From a virus (lineage: Duplodnaviria; Caudoviricetes), in the IMG/VR virus record IMGVR_UViG_3300044656_000027, positions 32,001 to 96,000 of that record: a stretch of 64,000 nt of DNA; one strand, 5' to 3'. The notes beneath the pieces are model-generated. The model did no database searches. It was not told the origin of the DNA and worked only from the letters and a program-made list of their open reading frames with translations. This document shows, piece by piece, positions 25,988 through 54,956 of this stretch. How positions within the stretch are numbered: the stretch's first letter is position 1; each line of letters begins with the position of its first letter. The position numbers and the translations under genes are program-made.

Positions 25988-26024
25988 ACTCTTTCTATGA
26001 GGGTCTTCAAGTAGGATGGGGAGG

Positions 26025-26849
26025 TTATAGACCCCACATCCCTCCATAAATCGGGCTTTGTATATTTGATTCGTCTTCGTCTCTTGTAGAGATCGGAGGC
26101 AACTGACGGCGTGGTAGCTCGTAGTCGTCGTACTCTCTGTCTTCGAAGATCGGTACCAGACGGTTTGTGGTCTTGGATACGCGACGAATCTTAGATACTT
26201 CGATTGCGTCAAGTCCTACATTCAGCATTGCACAGAGATGGTTGTATCTCTCGGTCATTCCGTCAATCTGCTCACGGAGCTGCTGATAACGCTGGCTACG
26301 GGGCACTGTAGTCCCGTCAGCGGAGGAGATGTCAATATCTGTGGAAGCGTCCGTTGCAAGCGCCCAGAGGGCATCTATGGACGCTCTGATGGCCACTAGG
26401 GACTCTTCTATCGGAGGAAGGTTTGATAGATCCATAGGGACACGTACGTACTTGATAAATCCGTTATTGTCCTTGAATCTCGTCTCCACGTAACGCCCGT
26501 TGGTGTGCTGGAGAACTGCTCCATTGATGAACTGCGTTAGCTCATCATCAGAGAACATTCCACCTGCTTGCCCAGAAACTACTAAGGTGTCTCCCTGAGG
26601 CAAGGGTGAGGATGGTCCTTGTAGATAGACTCTTCCCTCTTGGGTGTTCAATGTGTAGTCCGTATTAAGGACCAGCACGATTGGAGACTGGTTGTGAATC
26701 CATGTGATAGTGACATTCCATACATTGAAATCAGTCAAGTCATACGTGGAGACCATTCCCGTACCCAAGAAAGTGTTTGAGAACGGGGCTCCAGTATCAC
26801 CTAACTCCATGCGGACTCTGTTAATGATGTCCTGAGTAGTGAAACCCAT
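26025..26849 (-). CDS. head-tail adaptor / neck protein
   Basis: RVRMELGD...FSDDELTQFI motif; downstream of capsid. Confidence 0.65.
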   Translation of the reverse strand: MGFTTQDIINRVRMELGDTGAPFSNTFLGTGMVSTYDLTDFNVWNVTITWIHNQSPIVLVLNTDYTLNTQEGRVYLQGPSSPLPQGDTLVVSGQAGGMFSDDELTQFINGAVLQHTNGRYVETRFKDNNGFIKYVRVPMDLSNLPPIEESLVAIRASIDALWALATDASTDIDISSADGTTVPRSQRYQQLREQIDGMTERYNHLCAMLNVGLDAIEVSKIRRVSKTTNRLVPIFEDREYDDYELPRRQLPPISTRDEDESNIQSPIYGGMWGL

Positions 26850-26857
26850 GGCACCCC

Positions 26858-27310
26858 TTACTGTAGCGTGAAGGTCAGGTTACCAATTGGAATAGTGATT
26901 GACTGATTCTGTGGAGCCAGAATTGGGGTGTCCCACTGCCAAGTAAGGATAACCTCACCAGTAGTACCAGATGCAGCGTTTACCAGCGCACCAAATGTAG
27001 TGGCTGTACCCGAACCATTGGCAGAGGTGAAGACACCAAAGCTGACAAGGTTGGCGTTCTGAATCTGTGAGACTCCACCAGTAGGAGTAGTAGCAGACGT
27101 AAAGGTAACCACCTGACGGGAGTACCCAGTTGCTACTAACTCAGTAAGCTCAGAGAGCTGAGGATTAGTAGGGATCGCAGCAGTAGTTGTTGGGTCAGCA
27201 GTCAAAAGCATGATGTATGCAGTTGATGGAGGAGTCCAACCACCAAGAGAGGTACCTGTAATCCAGTTGAGAATAGCGCGATCCGTCGCGTCGGTGCAAT
27301 TACCTGCCAT
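26858..27310 (-). CDS. small virion structural protein
   Basis: YI.L.TADP...GYSRQ.V.F...N...V.F pattern seen in phage virion proteins. Confidence 0.6.
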   Translation of the reverse strand: MAGNCTDATDRAILNWITGTSLGGWTPPSTAYIMLLTADPTTTAAIPTNPQLSELTELVATGYSRQVVTFTSATTPTGGVSQIQNANLVSFGVFTSANGSGTATTFGALVNAASGTTGEVILTWQWDTPILAPQNQSITIPIGNLTFTLQ

Positions 27311-27321
27311 TAGTTAGTTCC

Positions 27322-27702
27322 TTATCTAACGTATCCACCAGTCCATAGCAATCCCTTTGACTCAAGGTGCTTCGCCAATTCTACAGGAACAACGTACTTA
27401 CGTCCCTCTTCGAAATTGTAATGCTTACCTGCGCCGAAAGTCATGGACTCTAGAGTGGTGTTTGGAATGATGGTACGAGTAGGAGCCTCAAGCTCAATGT
27501 CCTTAAGGACAGTTAGGTCATCCTCTACTGGCTGAACGATAGGACCGTTTGAGTAATCAACTGGAGTAGCCGCTTCTTCATCGCGGACCTCCTGCATCAT
27601 GGAGATTTCCTTGGCGCGCTCCTTTAGCGCTTCCTGGTTCTCCTTCTGTAGACGCTCAGTCTCAATACCGGTCAAGTCTCCTGCACGCTTACGTGGTGGC
27701 AT
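27322..27702 (-). CDS. hypothetical head-region protein
   Basis: 126-aa ORF with AGGAG RBS after capsid terminator. Confidence 0.7.
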   Translation of the reverse strand: MPPRKRAGDLTGIETERLQKENQEALKERAKEISMMQEVRDEEAATPVDYSNGPIVQPVEDDLTVLKDIELEAPTRTIIPNTTLESMTFGAGKHYNFEEGRKYVVPVELAKHLESKGLLWTGGYVR

Positions 27703-27748
27703 TCTGTTCTCCTAATAAGTCACGATTGTTAGTTAGATTATATCAAGA

Positions 27749-27787
27749 AGAAAAGCCCCGCCCGAATATAGAAGGCAGGGCTTTTCT
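27749..27787 (-). terminator. intrinsic terminator after major capsid gene
   Basis: AAAAGCCC...GGGCTTTT inverted repeat with T-rich tails. Confidence 0.75.
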
Positions 27788-27796
27788 AAACAAGAA

Positions 27797-28834
27797 TTAG
27801 TTGGTGGATGCGATAACCACAGAGATGTCTGTGATCAAACCAAGTCCCCAGATAGCGTACCACGCCAAGGCGTGCTCTCTTCCGAAATCTAGGATACCAC
27901 CATCACGCAATTCTACTGGAAGAGAAATAGCGTGACCGAATGCATTATCTCCAATAAAGATGGAGTCATAACGGTTAGCGGAACCATTACCAGTGGTTAC
28001 TCCACCAGTTGTAGTATCAGCGGTCCAACCAGTTCCGGCACCACCGACTACATTTCTAACCTGAGTAGTTTCGATAAATACTACGTCATTCAATCTACCA
28101 ATTTCACCAAGCATGAAATTCCCTGGGGCCGCATACTTAGTCATTTCGATAAATTGAGGATCGTTTCTCAACCAACGGCTCTGGTGAGGGTGTACGAAAC
28201 ATACATATGTCTCGCCCAAACGTGGAACATTCTTCGTAGCCAAAGTTTCTACGGCATCGAATACAACCTGAGAAGTCAAGTTGAAGTCACCAGTCATAGA
28301 AGCGTTAGAAGTACCAGGAGTACCGATGTTGTAGTAAACCTGGTTGTTAAGTGCGCCAGTGTCCTTCTGGTATCCGAAGATTTGTGAAGAAGCCTGTAGA
28401 AGAGTGTTACGTGCACTAACGTCTAGGTAGGTGGCCATGTTACGCCCTAGAAGACGAGAAGCAGAAGCCATAACGTCATCGAAGGAAGCGTTAAGCAATA
28501 GCTCAGAAACAGCAACAGCGAATCCCTGCTCAGCCACGGTGATGGAGAACTGAGAAGCTGTCAATGGAGCAGTCTGCATACGAATACCTTCAACAAGCTG
28601 GCTAGCCTGTCCTAGGTTATTGTAACGCATAAAGTTAATTGTGAGACCAGGAGTTACCCCGAGCTCAGTCTTCTTTACGGCAAATTGCTCGAATCTTAGA
28701 ATCGGCATTGCCTGGAAGAGGATTTCCTTTGACCATATGGTCTGAATTGCTGGGGATAGCGCGGTGCTACCACCAGGGTAGGAAGTAGGGGCACCAGAGA
28801 TATTCGGAGTACCCGTGATGGCTGATCCTGCCAT
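27797..28834 (-). CDS. major capsid protein (N4 gp56 / HK97-fold family)
   Basis: LRFEQFA, G.TINF.RY..L, L.EG, YVCFVHP, GEIGRL..VVFIET, DFGR. Confidence 0.92.
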   Translation of the reverse strand: MAGSAITGTPNISGAPTSYPGGSTALSPAIQTIWSKEILFQAMPILRFEQFAVKKTELGVTPGLTINFMRYNNLGQASQLVEGIRMQTAPLTASQFSITVAEQGFAVAVSELLLNASFDDVMASASRLLGRNMATYLDVSARNTLLQASSQIFGYQKDTGALNNQVYYNIGTPGTSNASMTGDFNLTSQVVFDAVETLATKNVPRLGETYVCFVHPHQSRWLRNDPQFIEMTKYAAPGNFMLGEIGRLNDVVFIETTQVRNVVGGAGTGWTADTTTGGVTTGNGSANRYDSIFIGDNAFGHAISLPVELRDGGILDFGREHALAWYAIWGLGLITDISVVIASTN

Positions 28835-28892
28835 ATTTAGTCCTTATCATTTGTATGGGCTAGGCACCAGCCGCCCAGAGATGTTCTTAAAC

Positions 28893-29708
28893 TTAGCCTA
28901 GGATGCCACGGTCACTAGCTGCTGTACGGGCAGCCATTCCCGACTCCTGGCGGAACTTCGCATACTCACTCATGGACATGTTTGCAATGTCCTGTGGGGA
29001 GAGCTGCTTCTGTCCCATAGCCCCGTCCATTGGACCAAGGGCGGTATATCCCGTAGCTGATACTCCACGCATCTGGGACATCTGTTGTTGTCTAGCCGCA
29101 GCCACTTCATCGGCAATGGACTGAGTAGCAATCTTTGCCTGTGCTATAGCGTTATCGATCTGTTCCTTAGTTTCACCTGTGATGAAGTTATGGAACTGCG
29201 GTGCGATCTCGTTAGAGTTAGCCGATAGTGCCTGGCTTCTGTACTCTACAAGTTCATTATATGCTCTTTCCTTGGCAAGTAGTGCACGCTCATTCTCGCG
29301 CTCCATCTGGAGCTGATTAAAGCGGGATTCCCAAGTCTCGTTGGTCTCCTTAAGCTTGGCCTCTAGGAGAGCCTTTGCAGACATCTCTTCTTCCTTTTTG
29401 GCCTTCTTAGCGGATTCCTTTTCCTGACGTTCACGCTCTAAGACGCTGAGCTCTTCCTGGCGCTGCTTCTGTAGATCCTGCAATAGCTTCTGAGAGCTAC
29501 TGAACTGCTCCTTTAGGGAAGTGATCTCACTGTATAGCTTATCCTTCTCCTGCTTGCGTGCTGCGGCGATATCTGCCTCAGTGAATGTACGCTCTCCCGT
29601 AGCTCCATGCTGGAATGCTACTGGGGAAGGAGCTGGACTCTGTGCGCCGTTGTCTGGGGTTGGAGACCCAATTGCCGCGTCCAAACCCGGTTGTACTGGA
29701 GTGCCCAT
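28893..29708 (-). CDS. capsid scaffolding protein
   Basis: Coiled-coil, FTEADI..ARKQEKDKLY, C-terminal NMSMSEYAK helix; between portal and capsid. Confidence 0.85.
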   Translation of the reverse strand: MGTPVQPGLDAAIGSPTPDNGAQSPAPSPVAFQHGATGERTFTEADIAAARKQEKDKLYSEITSLKEQFSSSQKLLQDLQKQRQEELSVLERERQEKESAKKAKKEEEMSAKALLEAKLKETNETWESRFNQLQMERENERALLAKERAYNELVEYRSQALSANSNEIAPQFHNFITGETKEQIDNAIAQAKIATQSIADEVAAARQQQMSQMRGVSATGYTALGPMDGAMGQKQLSPQDIANMSMSEYAKFRQESGMAARTAASDRGILG

Positions 29709-29775
29709 TATATTATCTCCTGAATTCTCACTGTAAGTTTTCCGAATATATCCCGAATGAATTAACTTCTAAGTC

Positions 29776-31497
29776 TTACTTATTATCGTCTGTAGGAAGC
29801 TGACGTGAACCTAGCTTCGTACCGTAAGCGTCGTTTACCATTGCTCTAAGAGCTTCCATGGAACCCGCACCATCCATAGCCTGTAGGTTAGGGCTGTTGT
29901 CGATGGTTCCTGGTCCTCCGCCTGTTGGCTTCGGATTACCCTCAGAATCTAGCTGAGGTTGTGCGTTCGGGTTAGGCTCTGATCCGTCAGGACCAGGCAT
30001 AAGCCCAGTGGTCTCAACCACAATGGAATCAATCTGTGCTCTCAGCATACGTAGAGCACCGTCACGAATTGCATCCTCGTGTAGTTCGTCGTAAATTTCC
30101 TGTAGCTTGTCGTCTGGGAATTGCTCTCCCAGGTCCTTAAGCGCACCGCGACGTGATTCCAGATCCAGATTCATCATTGCCATAATCTCATTCAGCTTGA
30201 CAAGTCTGTCTACTGGCAGTGGAGATGGCCATGTGATATCTGAGAAATAAACTAGAGGGTCATTAGGATCTAATACTGGAGGCTGACCCTCTTGCATAAT
30301 TCCTTCTGTATCAGGATTATACACTAATGCTTCCGGCTCGAAGATAAATAGAGTTCTTAAAGCTAACTCATTAATCTTCTGTAGTCCCTTACCATATTGT
30401 ATCTTCTTTAATTCGAACTTTTGGATAAGGGGGAAGAATTGAATTGCTAGAGCTACACCTGATGTATTTGAAATAGGCTGGCTCTGTCCAAGTGCAGACT
30501 CAGGTACTCCAGTCATCTCGTGCATAGCACGCTTGATGGTGTTCAGTACCTCTAGTGGCCACTGTAGGTCTACACCGTTCTCAAGGTTCTGTACAGATAC
30601 TTCCTTGTTTCCGATGGACCATACTCGGTTGGTACCCTTCTCAAGCTGAGATGGCTTGGCACCGATAACCACAGTAATGGGAGCTGCGTGGTAATTAACA
30701 ATGTCAGCAATGTCCGTAGCAGTTTCATTGTACTGACGATTAAGCGTAATCAAGTCCTGCACATCGGACATTCCCCAAGGAGATCCGGAAGCAGGGTGAT
30801 TAGCAATGTGAACGATAGGAATAACGCCAAGTACGTTTGGACGCTCGTCAATAAGCTCGTCATTTACATACTCGCGAATAACATCAGAACGAATCAACTC
30901 AGTGTATGTGTAAACACTTCTGGTTCCCTCTGTGTTGGTTCCCCAAAAGCGATACTTTAGTTTGAACTCTAGCAAACGGTCACGGTCGTGTGGGTGCCAA
31001 GTGGGGAAGCAGAATGCAGAGTTAAGCGGGAGGATACGTACTCTACCCTCATGCATATTTCCTGCGTTGTCTTCCCAAGCTGGTTCGTAGGCCACCTTGA
31101 TAAACGTATCTCCAGAGACACCACCTTGCTGACCCATCTCCCAGATTACGGACTTCATATTGTTATCCTGCTGCCAAATGCGCTTTAGCAGTGCAGGAAC
31201 AATGTGGTCGTATTCCTTAACGGTGTCGAATGTGATGCCTCTGGAGAAACAGAAGTTATTGATATAGTCAGCAAAAGCCTTGATGTAATTGAAGACAAGT
31301 TGTGGATCACCAAATTCACGACGGGTTCCCCAGTGATGTCCAAGATACCAAGCCCAGTATTCTGCATAGCGATTGAGTCTTGGTCCGTGCATTTCAAATT
31401 CTTCATCGGAAAGCTCAACTAGACCTAGTGGCGAAATTGCAATCGCTAGGTCTGAGGCTGCTGCTCTCATTGATGGAGAGTAGAAAGATGTTGACAT
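29776..31497 (-). CDS. portal protein (SPP1 gp6-like)
   Basis: GD.FIKV, N.LG.IPIVHI.N, GMSD, SGVAL motifs. Confidence 0.92.
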   Translation of the reverse strand: MSTSFYSPSMRAAASDLAIAISPLGLVELSDEEFEMHGPRLNRYAEYWAWYLGHHWGTRREFGDPQLVFNYIKAFADYINNFCFSRGITFDTVKEYDHIVPALLKRIWQQDNNMKSVIWEMGQQGGVSGDTFIKVAYEPAWEDNAGNMHEGRVRILPLNSAFCFPTWHPHDRDRLLEFKLKYRFWGTNTEGTRSVYTYTELIRSDVIREYVNDELIDERPNVLGVIPIVHIANHPASGSPWGMSDVQDLITLNRQYNETATDIADIVNYHAAPITVVIGAKPSQLEKGTNRVWSIGNKEVSVQNLENGVDLQWPLEVLNTIKRAMHEMTGVPESALGQSQPISNTSGVALAIQFFPLIQKFELKKIQYGKGLQKINELALRTLFIFEPEALVYNPDTEGIMQEGQPPVLDPNDPLVYFSDITWPSPLPVDRLVKLNEIMAMMNLDLESRRGALKDLGEQFPDDKLQEIYDELHEDAIRDGALRMLRAQIDSIVVETTGLMPGPDGSEPNPNAQPQLDSEGNPKPTGGGPGTIDNSPNLQAMDGAGSMEALRAMVNDAYGTKLGSRQLPTDDNK

Positions 31498-31611
31498 GGA
31501 ATCCCATTCTACGAATTAGTGTCTCTTGGTGTAAATCTTATCACATATTAGTATTCGGCCCAGAGTATCTGTAGGTTCCAAACCTGATTAGTATTTCCTG
31601 CTGCTGTGCTA

Positions 31612-31911
31612 TTAGACACCTACCTGCACAGTGAAGTTAGCTGCTGCTGCGGAAATAAGTCTTACATCAGTGCTGGAGGTAATTCCAGATCCAACCTGTG
31701 GACTGACCTTAGGATTGTTAACAGAGAGAGCGCTGTTAGCTGCAATGAAGAAACAGTCATCTCCTGCAATAGTTGGATCAATTCCATCAAAGCGAGCCCA
31801 CATATCTCCTGTGGATCTGTTCTCTACTTCAATGCCACGGAACCAACCGAAGGTGAGGCGCGATACTGTGTTTGCCACAGTCGTACCGCTAGTGATGTGT
31901 ACACCAGCCAT
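31612..31911 (-). CDS. small beta-rich virion protein, paralog 1
   Basis: SGT.VANTV...W...I.V.N....W..DG..PT..GDD pattern shared with 31921 and 32495. Confidence 0.7.
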   Translation of the reverse strand: MAGVHITSGTTVANTVSRLTFGWFRGIEVENRSTGDMWARFDGIDPTIAGDDCFFIAANSALSVNNPKVSPQVGSGITSSTDVRLISAAAANFTVQVGV

Positions 31912-31920
31912 AGTTACTCC

Positions 31921-32259
31921 TTAGGAAGCATATACAGTGAAAGGAATGGCTGTATCAGATACAAGCAATACGCTAGTACCGTTTACGCTTCGGGTAATTG
32001 GTTCCTGAGTCAGGACACCATTCGGGAATGTCACAGCCTGTCCGGGAAGCACAGGATAGCTGTCATCTGTGTCTGTAGGAGAAGACGGATTCCAAATCTT
32101 AGGGTTATTACCGTCTGTACGGAGCCAGATGGTTCCTGTCGTTCCTCTGTGAATGACTGTGATGTTTGCAAAATACTGAGGGAAGTTCACAGGATATACA
32201 ACCTGATTGGTTACTATACTCGCTGTGAGAGTATCTGAGTGTGATCTACTTGCAGCCAT
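31921..32259 (-). CDS. small beta-rich virion protein, paralog 2
   Basis: ITV...GT.GTIW.RTDG..P...DD pattern. Confidence 0.7.
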   Translation of the reverse strand: MAASRSHSDTLTASIVTNQVVYPVNFPQYFANITVIHRGTTGTIWLRTDGNNPKIWNPSSPTDTDDSYPVLPGQAVTFPNGVLTQEPITRSVNGTSVLLVSDTAIPFTVYAS

Positions 32260-32266
32260 AGCTTTC

Positions 32267-32485
32267 CTATCTCATGTTAACGACCGCAGTAGTTTGGTCT
32301 AGAGGATACTTTACTGGAGACGCACCAGGTATCTGTCCTCCGCTGTATCCGAATTCGTTGAGCAGATGAGCATGCATTTGTGCGTCAGCATTAGATTGAC
32401 CGGGAATAGGAACGAACATGTAGTCGCCGCTATTCCCGGTCAGCTCTTCATATGCGGCGGTACGTCTATTATGAAATACCGTCAT
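32267..32485 (-). CDS. hypothetical protein
   Basis: 72-aa ORF in tightly packed operon. Confidence 0.65.
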   Translation of the reverse strand: MTVFHNRRTAAYEELTGNSGDYMFVPIPGQSNADAQMHAHLLNEFGYSGGQIPGASPVKYPLDQTTAVVNMR

Positions 32486-32494
32486 TAATCAACC

Positions 32495-32890
32495 TTAGGC
32501 TAGAACAGTTGCAGCACCAGGGCTGTTGGACAGTTCAATATTATAGGTTGGTGGATTGGTAGCAAATGTACCAATCAAAGACACCTTGGTCTGTGCAGTT
32601 GTAAACGCTGGCACAGCAGATGGGTCAGTTGCAGCAGGAGTAGTTGCGGACAACTCGGCAGCTGGCAATAGGTTCTTTAGAACTGCGGTAACAGAACCGG
32701 TTGCTGGTACAGAGATTGCAGTGCAGTCTGCTCCACCAACGGTTGGGGTAGATCCATCAACGGTTGCATAAACAATACCAGCAGTACCAGTACCGTTAAG
32801 GGTGATGGATACCCACTTCTGCCAAGAAGTTAAAGTATTTGCGGCCACAGTGTTAGACACAAGAGTACCGCTAACTGCGTGTACAGCCAT
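32495..32890 (-). CDS. small beta-rich virion protein, paralog 3
   Basis: SGTLVSNTV...VYATVDGSTPTVGGADC. Confidence 0.7.
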   Translation of the reverse strand: MAVHAVSGTLVSNTVAANTLTSWQKWVSITLNGTGTAGIVYATVDGSTPTVGGADCTAISVPATGSVTAVLKNLLPAAELSATTPAATDPSAVPAFTTAQTKVSLIGTFATNPPTYNIELSNSPGAATVLA

Positions 32891-32914
32891 ATTTCACGTC
32901 CAATAATAGAAGGA

Positions 32915-33187
32915 TTACTTAGCGGCTGAGTCCACTGCGGCATCCGCAGAATCAACAACCTTATCAACAGTGTCCACATCAGAACGCAGGGTATCTGCGA
33001 CCTTCTCTACGTGAGAGGCAGCGTCGTGGACCTTAGAAGCAATGTCCGCCTTTACAACGTCCTCAATTGGGGACTGGTGTACGCGCTGGAAAATTGCCTC
33101 AAGCTTTAGAGTCAGAGCGTGAAGGTCACCCTCCACCTTTCCCTTGACATCTGCAAGCTTCTTCTCTACATCAGCAAATACGCTCAT
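32915..33187 (-). CDS. hypothetical helical protein
   Basis: 90-aa ORF with AAGGA RBS. Confidence 0.7.
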   Translation of the reverse strand: MSVFADVEKKLADVKGKVEGDLHALTLKLEAIFQRVHQSPIEDVVKADIASKVHDAASHVEKVADTLRSDVDTVDKVVDSADAAVDSAAK

Positions 33188-33196
33188 TGTTATTCC

Positions 33197-33403
33197 TTAA
33201 GAGTTTCGTGCGACAGAGGCATTGAAATGCATGACCGCTTCATCTAACTTTGTAATTGCAGAGGATAATTCTCTGCTTGCCGGGGCGTGTTCGTCCATCC
33301 ACAAAGCGAACTCTAAGGCTCTTGAACGTGCCTCCTCATAGAGAAGACCCTGTTCCGGTGTAGCAGGATGGAAAGTAAATCTATTCTGGATATCGCTGTT
33401 CAT
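33197..33403 (-). CDS. Acb2/Tad1-like helical hairpin protein (putative cyclic-nucleotide sponge)
   Basis: NRFTFHP...RELSSAITKLDEAVMHFNASVAR matches family pattern RE.SLA.TKLEEA.MWAN..IAR. Confidence 0.7.
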   Translation of the reverse strand: MNSDIQNRFTFHPATPEQGLLYEEARSRALEFALWMDEHAPASRELSSAITKLDEAVMHFNASVARNS

Positions 33404-33427
33404 ATTATGCTCCGAATGGTTTTGGAA

Positions 33428-33865
33428 TTAGTCAGTTACGATAGCACCGTGTAGACGCTCGTAACGACCACCGGAGCGAGATACTTGCTCAAATCTCTTT
33501 GCTGCATTGGAGTCAACCTGTACTCCATGCATAAACTCACCATTCATACCAGCAGAGTCAATCCATGCAGCAGAACCAACGTGAGCACGCTCACGAAGGG
33601 TCTCAGCAGCAGGCTTGATGAATACTGGTAGATTGTGGTTTGGCTTGCCGGGAGCTGTGCGATAACCCTGCATTGCGCCAAGTTGGAAATCGTTAGGTAC
33701 ATCTGTATCTGTAGCGATTCCTTCCTCAAAGCGCAGAGGTCCACGACGCTCGCTATTAACGGCTGCCTTGCCCTCATAATTGACCGCTCCACGGTCTCTT
33801 TCTGGGAATCTAGGAGTAGGCGCTAGATTGGTTACGCGGCCTGCTTCCTGGTACATTTCTGCCAT
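33428..33865 (-). CDS. hypothetical protein (head region)
   Basis: 145-aa ORF with AAGGA RBS between terminase and portal. Confidence 0.7.
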   Translation of the reverse strand: MAEMYQEAGRVTNLAPTPRFPERDRGAVNYEGKAAVNSERRGPLRFEEGIATDTDVPNDFQLGAMQGYRTAPGKPNHNLPVFIKPAAETLRERAHVGSAAWIDSAGMNGEFMHGVQVDSNAAKRFEQVSRSGGRYERLHGAIVTD

Positions 33866-33907
33866 ATGGTTTCCTTAAGTCAGATATCTACTAGATATGA
33901 TACCGCA

Positions 33908-35485
33908 TTACGATCTGCGTCTATCATAGAACGGATTATTGCTGACTTCGATCTCCTCTTGTACTGACTCAGGAATGATACTGAGTGCAATAGCCAGAGA
34001 GTCACAATAGTCATCGTGAGCATTGGCTTCCTTCGGAGCCTCAGCCAACATGTATGGTCCTTCAAACTTCACCTGTAGGTCAGACATTTGCTGGATGAAG
34101 TTACGGTATGTACGCAGAGAACGTGTCTTAGCGTGAGCGGGCCAACCGATCTTGCCTCTATCGATTACTTCACGAAGGTACTTCCAACGATCAGACTGTG
34201 CCTGTCGCTGTGAGGATACATCGATAATTTCTATATGAGGCAATAATACCCTAAGTCTGTCAACAACTAGGTCACCCATTCCACCTGAGTCAACTCCAAT
34301 TGCGAATACATTGTATTTCGAAACGAATTCAACAATTCGGTGATACTGTGTTTCCCAATCTTGTCCCTGTAAATCAAGCCAATTAAGAACTCGGCAATTG
34401 TAATATCCGAATTCATCTCTGTGCTCCCAGTCAACAAACATAGCTGTGACAATAGTGGAGTCGATCTTACGTGCAGGGTCAATTCCAATAACGATAGGAG
34501 TAGTGTAGTAAGCCTTCACTGTCTCCATAGTCTTATCTCCAAGCTCATCAAGGCGCTCGGAGGTGGTAAACATTCCCTGTTCCAGAAGCCACATGAGGCG
34601 GTAGGACAGCTTGAATTCGTCTGAGTCGTAACCCATACGCAGCATGTCTCCCGCTACAGCCTTCTCATACTTCTTATTCCACTTGGATACTTCCCTGTAG
34701 TCAGCTTCGTAGTGGTTGGTACGAGCTCCGCGCTTAGTGGCATTACGCTTGTTCTGCTGAATCTGTCGGTAGAAAACACCCTTCTCATACGTGGGTGTTC
34801 CAGTCATGATGAAGGTACCGGCAGTAGAAGCAAGCATCGGGCGAATTGACTTGTCAACAACTCTCTGGTCGGCAACCTGTGCCTCATCCAAAAGAGCGAT
34901 GTGATAAGTCTTACCTTCAATAGATGCGCGAGGGTGAGCTGTCTGCCTGCGTACTAGAGAGCCACACTTCTCTAACTTGATCTCAGCTCCCTTACCCTTG
35001 ATACGATCATCAATACCAGGGTCCAGAAGAATTGCTTGCGCGCGCTCGGATGTCAGCATGGACACGATACGGCTAAAGAGGGTCTTAGCCATGTCGTCAA
35101 CGGGTGCGAAGGCTCCTACCCATACGCCTTCCTTGAAAGAGTCCAGAAGGTCTGCGTAGCGCTCCAGCTTCGCTAATCTGGGAAGCATGATCATCATCGT
35201 AGCAATGGCAGCCGATACTGTCTCAGTCTTGCCGCTCTGACGGCTAAAAAGGGCTGTCACAGTCGCGTTGTCGTTGATGATGACCGATTCCATGATGCGC
35301 GCTGCAAAGGGTCTCTGATAGCCATACAGAGGGTGTCCTGACAGCTCGTCGGCAAAGATCAGCAGCTTCTCCACCAAGAGATCCACGGATGCCTGAGACA
35401 TCGGGTCTAGTTCGATCTTGGTGGAGTTGAGGGCTTCCAGCTCTTCGGTTGTTAAATCTTCATACGTTTCGTCGTACATTGTCAT
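33908..35485 (-). CDS. terL: terminase large subunit
   Basis: Walker A SRQSGKT, Walker B LLDEAQ, TGTP, IGIDPA nuclease, HDDYCDS; start refined to MTMYD with AGGAG RBS. Confidence 0.93.
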   Translation of the reverse strand: MTMYDETYEDLTTEELEALNSTKIELDPMSQASVDLLVEKLLIFADELSGHPLYGYQRPFAARIMESVIINDNATVTALFSRQSGKTETVSAAIATMMIMLPRLAKLERYADLLDSFKEGVWVGAFAPVDDMAKTLFSRIVSMLTSERAQAILLDPGIDDRIKGKGAEIKLEKCGSLVRRQTAHPRASIEGKTYHIALLDEAQVADQRVVDKSIRPMLASTAGTFIMTGTPTYEKGVFYRQIQQNKRNATKRGARTNHYEADYREVSKWNKKYEKAVAGDMLRMGYDSDEFKLSYRLMWLLEQGMFTTSERLDELGDKTMETVKAYYTTPIVIGIDPARKIDSTIVTAMFVDWEHRDEFGYYNCRVLNWLDLQGQDWETQYHRIVEFVSKYNVFAIGVDSGGMGDLVVDRLRVLLPHIEIIDVSSQRQAQSDRWKYLREVIDRGKIGWPAHAKTRSLRTYRNFIQQMSDLQVKFEGPYMLAEAPKEANAHDDYCDSLAIALSIIPESVQEEIEVSNNPFYDRRRS

Positions 35486-35524
35486 GTCGTTCTCCTGATC
35501 AATATCTCGTTCCTCCATTGTACC

Positions 35525-35553
35525 TTGACAAAGGGTTGACCCTGCGGTACGTT
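35525..35553 (+). promoter_or_regulatory. sigma70/HrdB-like promoter for the lone plus-strand gene
   Basis: TTGACA-N17-TACGTT, 35 nt upstream of ATG 35588. Confidence 0.6.
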
Positions 35554-35587
35554 GGTGGTACCACAACTAAACACCAAGGAGATCATC

Positions 35588-35836
35588 ATGGACGAGTTCG
35601 ACCCTTTCGAGCAGATGTCTCAGCACGATCACTCTGGGGAGTTCATGAGACCCTTCGTGGGTGGAATGGTAGGCGGCTTCATTGGCCACCAGCTCTCCAA
35701 GACACGGTTGGGTCAGCGATTCGAGAACAGCCGCATCGTCGGTTGGATCATTGGTCTGATACTGCTCGGAGTTGCCGGGTACGCTGCATTCTGTTGCGTA
35801 GTCTTTCTAGGCTTCCTGATTCACGCGTTCCTCTAA
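35588..35836 (+). CDS. small membrane protein, opposite strand to operon
   Basis: AAGGAG RBS, own promoter, glycine-zipper segment plus C-terminal TM helix. Confidence 0.75.
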   Translation: MDEFDPFEQMSQHDHSGEFMRPFVGGMVGGFIGHQLSKTRLGQRFENSRIVGWIIGLILLGVAGYAAFCCVVFLGFLIHAFL

Positions 35837-53032: not shown

Positions 53033-53497
53033 TTATGAGGTTGGTGCAGGAAGAGCAAGTGTAGCACAGATTACCAGAGCTACTGCAACGATTGAGACAG
53101 CGAATGTCTGTACCAGAGCAGTCTTCCAACCCAGATCCTCCTTCTTCATGTACGCTACCACAAAGGTCATACCAATGTAAATACCAACAGCAGACCAGAG
53201 GGCTACTGTTCCTCCTATGAACGCAAAAGGTATCACAGGAGCGAAACAGCCTATAGCAGTAAAGATACCCATATAAGTAGCAGAACGTAGTCTAGTTCTC
53301 TTGGGTATAGACTTATCTGAGGATAGATATTCTCCTAGTCCCATAGAGATAGCTGAACTAACAGCTAATCCTATACAAGTAACAAAGACTAGTACATGAG
53401 AGAAAGCTAATAGAGGGATTAATACTCCTAGTAAAGAAGTTAATCCATCAAACATTCCAAATATAGAAGGCTTAAGTAAGTCTTTATCTATCTTCAT
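53033..53497 (-). CDS. VIT1/CCC1 family metal (Fe/Mn) transporter-like protein
   Basis: IFGMFDGL...G....A.SMGLGEYLS...G...PVIPF; start refined to MKIDK (the track's TTG is the -35 box). Confidence 0.82.
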   Translation of the reverse strand: MKIDKDLLKPSIFGMFDGLTSLLGVLIPLLAFSHVLVFVTCIGLAVSSAISMGLGEYLSSDKSIPKRTRLRSATYMGIFTAIGCFAPVIPFAFIGGTVALWSAVGIYIGMTFVVAYMKKEDLGWKTALVQTFAVSIVAVALVICATLALPAPTS

Positions 53498-53522
53498 AAC
53501 TATCTTTCTAATATAAATATTA

Positions 53523-53585
53523 AGGGTAGCAGAGAGTGGTACATCTGTCAAGTCCTTGACTTTGTACTACGATCTCTGGTAGAGT
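53523..53585. promoter_or_regulatory. back-to-back divergent promoters at strand switch
   Basis: Minus TTGACA-N17-TACCCT (53551-53523); plus TTGACT-N18-TAGAGT (53556-53585). Confidence 0.65.
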
Positions 53586-53829: not shown

Positions 53830-54249
53830 ATGGAACGCTTGGGACAGAAGAACCAAAGCTCCTATTATTCTAAACCGATTACACGGATACACGCTGACTT
53901 CAACGGTATCTGTGCTTTATGCGGTGGATATGTGGAGCTTAAGGATGCATCCCGAGACCATATCATCCCTCGCTCAGAAGGCGGGGGTAATGGCCGGGAT
54001 AACATTCAATTAACGCACAAGAAGTGCAATAACCTAAAGGGTAACGTCGTTTACCCGAAGAATTGGCAAGAACAGCTCCAGCGGGAGATGGTGATCCCAC
54101 AGGGATATCGCTGCCGTTACTGTGAAATGCCGATTACCAATCAGCATAAGAAGCACAAGTGGGTAGTCAAGGTTATGAGCCATAAGGGTCATGTAGAGGC
54201 GCTGCACTCTTGGTGTAACGAAGAGAGGATCAAGTATGGTAAGCGTTGA
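53830..54249 (+). CDS. HNH endonuclease
   Basis: CALCG...DHIIPRSEGG.....N.QLTH..CN..KG. Confidence 0.85.
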   Translation: MERLGQKNQSSYYSKPITRIHADFNGICALCGGYVELKDASRDHIIPRSEGGGNGRDNIQLTHKKCNNLKGNVVYPKNWQEQLQREMVIPQGYRCRYCEMPITNQHKKHKWVVKVMSHKGHVEALHSWCNEERIKYGKR

Positions 54250-54427
54250 TGAAATTCGCAATATGACCATGTCCGAGTATGCTATTTGGCGCAATACTGT
54301 GCTTATTCCTACTGGAGACTATACAGAAATCAAAGATTATGATTATTATCGTGAATTGTATGTCACCACAGGAGACTGGCGCTATTTCTATTCAATGCTA
54401 GAGAAAGTAGACCCAAATGGCTGGTAA
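54236..54427 (+). CDS. 63-aa protein with scaffold C-terminus-like N-terminal helix
   Basis: EIRNMTMSEYAIWR vs scaffold DIANMSMSEYAKFR. Confidence 0.7.
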   Translation: MVSVDEIRNMTMSEYAIWRNTVLIPTGDYTEIKDYDYYRELYVTTGDWRYFYSMLEKVDPNGW

Positions 54428-54956
54428 TACGCCAATAATGCTATTAGACGTTGACGGACCACTTAATCCTTATGCGGCTAAGGCAAATAAGCGTCCAGAG
54501 GGCTATACAGTCCATAGAATGACTCCAACCGGCTGGGAAGACAATCCTTTGCACGTTTGGCTCAATCATTCAATGGGTGCGCAGCTAAAAAGCCTTGGAT
54601 ATGAGATTATTTGGGCTACAACTTGGGCTAAGGATGCCAACGAGTGGATTTCTCCGCACATTGGCCTTCCTACGGACCTAGAGTGCATCGAATGGGGTCC
54701 ACATGGAGCAGAGATCGAGCAACCGGGTCTTAGAAAGCTCTATTGGAAGACTCCGCAGATCGCAGCCTGGATGCATGAGCATTATCCGGATCGTCCGTTC
54801 ATTTGGGTGGATGATGAGGCTTTCAAGAAGGATGAGAAATATTTGAAGTCAAAGCTAGGCCAGCCTTTGAAGGTTTTCACCATTAATCCTGCAAAGGGCA
54901 TTGATGATGACGATTTAAAGGACTTCAAGGACTGGAAGGACGATTTGGGTGGCTAG
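54417..54956 (+). CDS. HAD-family phosphatase (Swiss-army-knife RNA-repair-like HAD)
   Basis: LLDVDGPLNP, IIWATTW, WK, FIWVDD. Confidence 0.82.
   Translation: MAGNTPIMLLDVDGPLNPYAAKANKRPEGYTVHRMTPTGWEDNPLHVWLNHSMGAQLKSLGYEIIWATTWAKDANEWISPHIGLPTDLECIEWGPHGAEIEQPGLRKLYWKTPQIAAWMHEHYPDRPFIWVDDEAFKKDEKYLKSKLGQPLKVFTINPAKGIDDDDLKDFKDWKDDLGG

Follow-up and report, generated by a model that had tools for sequence, protein, structure and literature searches.

A 63-residue accessory protein encoded in a non-structural operon of a ~111-kb phage carries at its N-terminus a motif that it shares with a conserved block near the C-terminus of the phage's own scaffolding protein, and the motif is very probably common to both proteins by common descent or strong functional constraint. 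The reading preferred here, drawn by analogy with the scaffolds of other phages and held at a probability of about 0.4, is that the small protein binds where the scaffold does, most probably on the capsid protein, and there acts in procapsid assembly as a competitor of the scaffold or a supplement to it, with a C-terminal hairpin that would serve in pairing or as an effector.

The small gene and the head genes of its genome

The window is a 64-kb stretch (bases 32001–96000) of a 111,289-bp IMG/VR virus genome (GC ~48%) that has direct terminal repeats and encodes its own head genes. The host lineage of the small gene is a group of ~111-kb phages that are relatives of Streptomyces phage BRock. 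Within the window, the small gene is the second gene of a rightward operon, and the following features were assigned to it and its immediate neighbours:

53830–54249, plus: HNH endonuclease, upstream neighbour (Pfam HNH_5 and HNH; phrog_5718)
54224–54229, plus: Shine-Dalgarno-like AGAGGA, 6 nt ahead of the small gene's ATG, read from the sequence
54236–54427 including the stop codon, plus: small accessory gene, 63 aa (ORF list and homologues)
54239–54301, plus: N-terminal module of the small protein, residues 2–22 (BLASTP, HMMs, hhalign, AlphaFold2)
54302–54337, plus: linker, residues 23–34 (pLDDT below 50 at residues 27–30; family alignment)
54338–54424, plus: C-terminal module, residues 35–63 (family alignment, AlphaFold2)
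54417–54956, plus: HAD_SAK_2 phosphatase-like protein, downstream neighbour (Pfam PF18143, E = 5.1e-11)

The small gene shares 14 nt with the HNH gene at its start and 11 nt with the HAD gene at its end. Together with the Shine-Dalgarno site and the presence of syntenic homologues, these overlapping starts and stops mark the ORF as a real gene; a near-identical copy occurs in contig L002. The first-pass annotation had placed the gene among non-structural functions, and this agrees with the members of the operon, which include the HNH endonuclease, the HAD_SAK_2 protein and an Rv2179c-like exonuclease. Diverging from the operon, as the first leftward gene opposite it, is a gene for a VIT1/CCC1-like membrane protein (53033–53551, minus), and a gene of this kind lies at the same place in several relatives (L087, 8657–9130; L099, 1848–2315). 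In relatives, a TROVE-domain (Ro60-like) gene is also found, leftward of the slot by a few kb (L086, 2439–4049, minus; L087, 1031–2596, minus).

In composition the encoded protein is acidic, with a very high content of aromatic residues. Neither Pfam nor PHROGs holds a family for it, a Pfam/PHROG scan of 11 members of its family at E-values up to 10 gave scattered single hits only, and a tblastn search against GenBank phages returned noise only. A scan of the region for promoters and terminators gave weak consensus matches only, which were not used as evidence.

The head genes relevant to the comparison are encoded on the opposite strand:

33908–35566, minus: large terminase
29776–31497, minus: portal protein, 573 aa (phrog_64 portal protein, E = 7.4e-42)
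28893–29708, minus: scaffolding protein, 271 aa, between the portal and the major capsid protein
28947–29003, minus: scaffold motif block, residues 236–254, counterpart of the small protein's N-terminus
27797–28834, minus: major capsid protein, 345 aa (phrog_1357 major head protein, E = 3.4e-66)

The major capsid protein also matched Pfam Phage_capsid_3 and Phage_capsid_4. A scan of ten proteins of the head region and its surroundings (26,000–35,600, minus) gave no match to a prohead protease family, and this result combined with the portal–scaffold–capsid gene order suggests a protease-free assembly pathway of the P22/T7 type, with a free scaffold that docks via its C-terminal region. Between the terminase and portal genes, two neighbouring genes that are probably paralogues matched phrog_32632, which has no assigned function (31921–32259, minus, E = 5.8e-24; 32495–32890, minus, E = 4.4e-4). 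A 126-aa protein encoded directly downstream of the capsid protein gene (27322–27702, minus), with a sub-threshold match to Pfam PSF2_N only, may be a decoration or head-associated protein.

The 271-aa scaffold is 49–52% identical to the annotated scaffolding proteins of Streptomyces phages GiJojo, pSt2308, Alone3 and LuckySocke and, in the same range, to a hypothetical protein of BRock. A total of 133 scaffold relatives were found in viral contigs, of which 80 were fetched (identity down to 30%). Pfam and PHROGs hold no family for the scaffold, and a search with the scaffold-family profile against PDB sequences found no solved structure of any relative. Members are ~270 aa long and consist of four conserved blocks and a long helical middle (loci L004–L083), with the blocks located at residues 45–59, at 214–228 (R-G-V-S-x-T-G...G-P-x-D), at 239–253 (the motif) and at the terminus (R-G-(L/I)-F-G, reduced to R-G-R-F in distant members).

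The motif, D-I-x-N-M-S/T-M-x-E/Q-Y-x-K-x-R, was present near the C-terminus in all complete fetched scaffolds. Among 46 non-redundant scaffolds, residues 239–253 rank second in conservation among 15-residue windows (3.09 bits per column compared to a protein mean of 2.42), exceeded by residues 45–59, and the most informative positions in the block are I241, M244, M246, Y249 and R253. The motif is followed by 17 residues that end in the separately conserved R-G-(L/I)-(F/L)-G.

The motif shared with the scaffold

A BLASTP comparison aligned residues 2–19 of the small protein with residues 236–253 of the scaffold (10/18 identical; pairwise E = 1e-4), and within this alignment a 14-residue core encoded at 28950–28991 is identical at 9 positions, exactly as the first-pass annotation had it. 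An all-against-all comparison within a 64-kb window would yield about one pairwise E-value of 1e-4 by chance. As the value does not survive correction for a whole-window reading, the resemblance was tested at the level of families.

An HMM of 22 columns, built only from 46 scaffolds of other phages, recovered the small ORF from the six-frame translation of the window at E = 1.1e-7 (1128 frames; next match E ~3) and from that of the whole genome at E = 2.4e-7 (2523 frames; next match E ~4). When the HMM was built from distant scaffolds only (≤52% identity), the small ORF was still found at E = 5.5e-6. In the reciprocal direction, an HMM of the N-terminal module, made from the small family minus the window's copy, matched only the window's scaffold (E = 4.7e-8), and the small-family profile, applied to four complete relatives and to GiJojo, all of which lack the gene, recovered the scaffold motif only (E = 1.6e-7 to 5.6e-5). 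Across 555 kb of related loci (12,686 frames), both motif HMMs matched scaffolds and small-family members only. Alignment of the two family alignments with hhalign gave a probability of 96.8% (E = 2.5e-10) over 35 columns.

With these reciprocal matches the resemblance proposed by the first-pass annotation is genuine. Its extent is limited to a motif block of ~20–35 columns: the HMM of the scaffold tail scored the small ORF no better than the motif HMM, and the scaffold's N-terminal block, G-P-x-D block and terminal R-G-L-F-G are absent from the 63-aa protein. With the alignment confined to the motif block, the small protein does not belong to the scaffold family.

It is very improbable that the resemblance is a chance one, or that there is no gene at all. 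Such an explanation could draw on the pairwise BLASTP value, which is not significant after whole-window correction, and on the lack of a Pfam or PHROG family; it is countered by the reciprocal family-level tests (1e-7 to 1e-10), by open frames conserved in synteny at 28–48% identity and by the Shine-Dalgarno site.

No other carrier of the motif was found in the whole genome, in five related genomes or in the 555 kb of related loci, and a database search for the motif in longer proteins returned nothing at E ≤ 10, which is weak evidence. Strings of the form (L/M)-T-x-x-E-x-x-x-W were seen in other small ORFs of relatives' operons (L095, 1140–1319 and 1316–1474, minus; L098, 2156–2374, minus). 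None of these ORFs scored with either motif HMM, and the strings may represent an unrelated, common helix-turn-helix pattern.

Two modules in a variable slot

For the small protein, an exhaustive HMMER search of 1.84 billion representatives returned four real relatives, together with two repeat proteins that proved spurious. Profile searching raised the family to ~12 members, with one more read from genome G002, and identity to the window's protein ranges from 28 to 48%. The N-terminal module has the consensus (D/E)-I-x-N-M-(S/T)-M-x-E-Y-A-x-x-R, in which M10 and Y15 are invariant across the family and R19 is nearly so. Conservation among homologues had been named in advance as a check on the proposed resemblance, and the motif is kept in every one of them; in P0013 it is degenerate and lies ~28 residues from the N-terminus, compared to an N-terminal position in most members. 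The scaffold's most informative positions (I, M, M, Y and R) are all retained in the small family, and the scaffold's conserved K251 is replaced by a hydrophobic residue.

The C-terminal module carries the signature Y-x-Y-(Y/F)-R-x-x-Y-V-x-T-G-D-x-x-Y-L-x-x-M-L-E-K-V, with Y35, G46, Y50 and M54 invariant across the family. An HMM of this module matched nothing else in the genome or in the 555 kb of related loci. The linker between the modules is short in most members and holds insertions of ~35–90 residues in P0002, P0009 and P0013, and because its length varies the two modules are regarded as independent.

AlphaFold2, run on the family alignment, predicted helices at residues 4–8, 12–22, 35–45 and 48–58 of the small protein (mean pLDDT 76), the last two forming a hairpin, with block means of 82–83 over residues 1–20 and a low-confidence loop at 27–30. 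For the last 70 residues of the scaffold, helices were predicted at positions 37–41 and 45–54, exactly over the motif, and the motif block had the best local confidence (block mean 78; overall pLDDT 61). Both models are of moderate confidence, and they give the two proteins the same predicted layout of a helix (5 residues), a turn (3) and a second helix (~10). The scaffold would thus possess, at moderate confidence, a helix-turn-helix near its C-terminus as in P22. The shared motif had originally been described as a mimic of the scaffold's C-terminal helix. The sharing stands, and the description of the structure is revised, as the block lies 17 residues short of the C-terminus and is predicted to be a helix-turn-helix as opposed to a terminal single helix.

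Structural databases offered no relatives. Profiles of both families against PDB sequences (E up to 10) gave noise only, a Foldseek search of the model against the PDB had no match at E ≤ 0.001 (best E = 4), a wide fold search with VIA-align had none above Z = 3 (best Z 2.8) and the ESM Atlas had no usable match for the model. The C-terminal hairpin in particular was without a match in Pfam, PHROGs, PDB sequences, PDB folds or the ESM Atlas. A single TPR repeat was considered for this hairpin and rejected; the match of P0005 was spurious (a Cna_B adhesin with a beta fold) and no TPR family scored.

Wherever it could be read, the gene order was (VIT1-like, leftward), then (small ORF) HNH, the small gene, HAD_SAK_2, several small ORFs, the Rv2179c-like exonuclease and, further along, DUF6011, with one context variant that lacks the HNH gene. 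In four complete relatives the small gene is missing: the slot is empty in G001 and G005, where HNH abuts HAD, and is occupied by unrelated small ORFs of 65–72 aa in G003 and G004 (HNH–HAD interval read in L095–L098, corresponding to G005, G001, G004 and G003). The family profile also failed to find the gene in GiJojo, a cultured phage of the BRock group. G002 has an additional ~300 bases, containing one or two small ORFs, ahead of the motif-bearing gene. The small gene is an accessory gene in a variable slot, and since four complete relatives with the same scaffold family lack it, it is not needed for assembly. Members of the small family were found solely in the phage lineage with a motif-bearing scaffold.

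At the DNA level, the two motif stretches are identical at 32 of 57 positions and their Ser codons are not interconvertible by one change. An origin by recent duplication of, or gene conversion from, the scaffold gene was rejected on these grounds and because the small protein resembles its own scaffold no more closely than it does others. The motif copy is an old one, selectively maintained. Co-variation between the motif and the scaffold, which the first-pass annotation had proposed as a check, was not found: the three same-genome pairs available (two sure, one tentative) gave no signal.

The motif might also be a folding unit only, inherited or converged upon and put to unrelated uses, with the small protein serving the nucleic-acid or early functions of its operon. 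The neighbouring HNH, HAD_SAK_2 and Rv2179c-like exonuclease genes fit such a role, as do the protein's acidic, aromatic-rich composition and the presence in other small ORFs of relatives' operons of (L/M)-T-x-x-E-x-x-x-W strings with a loose similarity to the motif. We consider it rather unlikely, given that profile searches across 555 kb of related DNA placed the motif in scaffolds and the small family alone, that the small family is confined to the lineage with the motif-bearing scaffold and that precisely the scaffold's most constrained positions are kept.

Candidate partners and known systems

Contacts between scaffolds and capsid proteins are short and hard to see, and atomic detail exists for few phages only. 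The preferred reading of docking at the scaffold's site has separable parts. That the N-terminal module and the scaffold block have the same partner is slightly better than an even bet; that this partner is the capsid protein, by analogy with better-known phages, falls somewhat short of even. The N-terminal module would occupy the docking site of the scaffold block, most likely on the major capsid protein of assembly intermediates (its inner face or its N-arm), as the cases of P22, phi29 and 80alpha would suggest. There the small protein would compete with the scaffold, or sit beside it, and so modulate procapsid assembly, and the C-terminal hairpin on its variable linker would have a function of its own, for example the pairing of two copies in the manner of the CpmB dimerisation domain. 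The roles put forward by the first-pass annotation, namely timing of assembly, interference with competing phages or satellites and masking of the capsid from defences, are hypothetical.

Several observations bear on the strength of this reading. It is favoured because the small family has kept all five of the scaffold block's most informative positions. It is weakened because the scaffold's N-terminal block (45–59) is even more conserved than the motif, because K251 is replaced by a hydrophobic residue, because the motif of the small protein does not follow its own genome's scaffold and because the gene is dispensable in four complete relatives. The confidence of the models is moderate (pLDDT 76 and 61), and the apparently early or nucleic-acid-metabolism operon fits a role unrelated to the capsid as well, both of which weaken it further. 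The scaffold family being without a solved relative, a coat-contact role for the block is argued from P22, phi29 and 80alpha. The real hook might be the G-P-x-D block or the terminal R-G-(L/I)-F-G in place of the motif, and the latter, absent from the small protein, could correspond to RIIK in 80alpha, a further point against docking through the motif.

In P22, the scaffold's C-terminal helix-turn-helix binds the N-arm of the coat protein via Y292, R293, K296 and S285 (PMC9965877). The scaffold of the window resembles P22 gp8 in its predicted helix-turn-helix near the C-terminus of a free, apparently uncleaved scaffold and in the aromatic and basic residues of the second helix (Y, K and R here; Y292, R293 and K296 in P22). 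It differs in that there is no detectable sequence or fold match and in the 17 further residues, with their own conserved end, that follow the motif; coat binding is established for P22 gp8, and for the scaffold of the window it would follow by analogy. The phi29 scaffold has its capsid-binding helix-turn-helix near the N-terminus (PMC11922011), and gp7 of this phage, likewise a small helical protein, provides a precedent for the N-terminal placing of such a unit. Unlike gp7, which is an essential scaffold, the small protein is accessory and is encoded alongside a full-length scaffold, and no sequence or fold similarity between the two was detected.

The closest known case is that of CpmB and the 80alpha scaffold. 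The 80alpha scaffold binds the capsid protein through a C-terminal helix and an RIIK hook, and CpmB of SaPI1 (72 residues), which carries the C-terminal motif of that scaffold, makes the same capsid-protein contacts and competes with the scaffold (PMC5644958). CpmB is encoded by a satellite that parasitises the phage, redirects capsid size and has a dimerisation domain (PMC5644958). Like CpmB, the protein described here is small and helical, with a short scaffold-like stretch and a separate helical module. Unlike CpmB, its gene is owned by the phage and is syntenic in several related phages, as opposed to residing on a satellite or mobile island. Its motif is N-terminal and of different sequence, and it does not copy the scaffold hook, compared to a C-terminal RIIK helix and hook in CpmB. 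CpmB changes capsid size; the small protein is not known to affect capsids. No match to CpmB was found among PDB sequences (E up to 10) or folds (Z above 3), which does not exclude a relationship.

Contact with another partner is the first alternative to docking on the capsid protein. The shared block would bind the scaffold itself, the portal or a host factor, and by motif-to-motif pairing the small protein could cap the scaffold or act as a dominant-negative regulator of its oligomerisation or availability. Short helix-turn-helix units often pair, and the coat might be contacted by the G-P-x-D block, R-G-L-F-G or the more conserved N-terminal block in place of the motif. A partner surface conserved family-wide also fits the finding that the motif does not co-vary with the phage's own scaffold. 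Set against this is the fact that in P22, phi29 and 80alpha the terminal helix-turn-helix or helix-and-hook contacts the capsid protein, and contact with another partner is unlikely.

A second alternative takes its model from the internal proteins of T4, which are small, diverse and dispensable and reach the prohead interior through an N-terminal capsid targeting sequence that aims at the scaffolding core and is cut off by the prohead protease (PMC3012670). The N-terminal motif would then act as a capsid-targeting tag by which the small protein enters procapsids, at the inner wall or in the scaffold core, with the hairpin as cargo for packaging or for delivery to the next cell, as with T4 internal proteins or encapsulin cargo peptides. 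The likeness consists of a short conserved N-terminal element on a small dispensable protein; this element lies at the extreme N-terminus ahead of a flexible linker of variable length, the sharing of the motif is itself well supported and the gene is an accessory one in a variable slot, as for the diverse T4 internal proteins (PMC3012670). In contrast to T4, the tag-like motif copies a scaffold block, packaging is hypothetical and the ten proteins scanned included no recognisable protease for cutting a tag off. An acidic protein of 63 residues would probably exit with the scaffold, and the cargo would amount to just ~30 residues. This explanation is unlikely.

Docking on the capsid protein, contact with another partner and carriage into the procapsid all predict motif-dependent binding to an assembly component. 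The small protein is not demonstrably a relative of CpmB, P22 gp8 or the T4 internal proteins. Scaffold-motif mimicry is known from satellites (CpmB), and what is new here is a phage-encoded mimic with an N-terminal motif; a literature search, not exhaustive, found no description of a phage-encoded, stand-alone copy of a scaffold motif.

In its fullest form, the interpretation is that the phage keeps a portable copy of the scaffold's capsid-docking module, joined to an effector hairpin, in a hypervariable slot of a non-structural operon, as a scaffold decoy or capsid-address tag. This is offered tentatively and is doubtful as it stands. If true, such a device could disrupt assembly in co-infecting relatives with the same capsid–scaffold interface, could hide new capsid protein from capsid-sensing host immunity or could load a passenger into the procapsid, and it would be the first of its kind in a phage rather than a satellite.

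The lineage provides a natural experiment in which one module of 15–20 residues occurs in two unrelated protein contexts within the same phages. If the module docks on the capsid protein, it would define the docking element of a large scaffold family (133 relatives) without a solved structure and would be a ready-made, minimal capsid-targeting tag, and satellite-style mimicry of the CpmB kind would be used by phages too, possibly in phage–phage or host-defence conflicts. If it does not, the small proteins would still constitute an accessory family that is new, limited to one lineage and clearly built of two modules.
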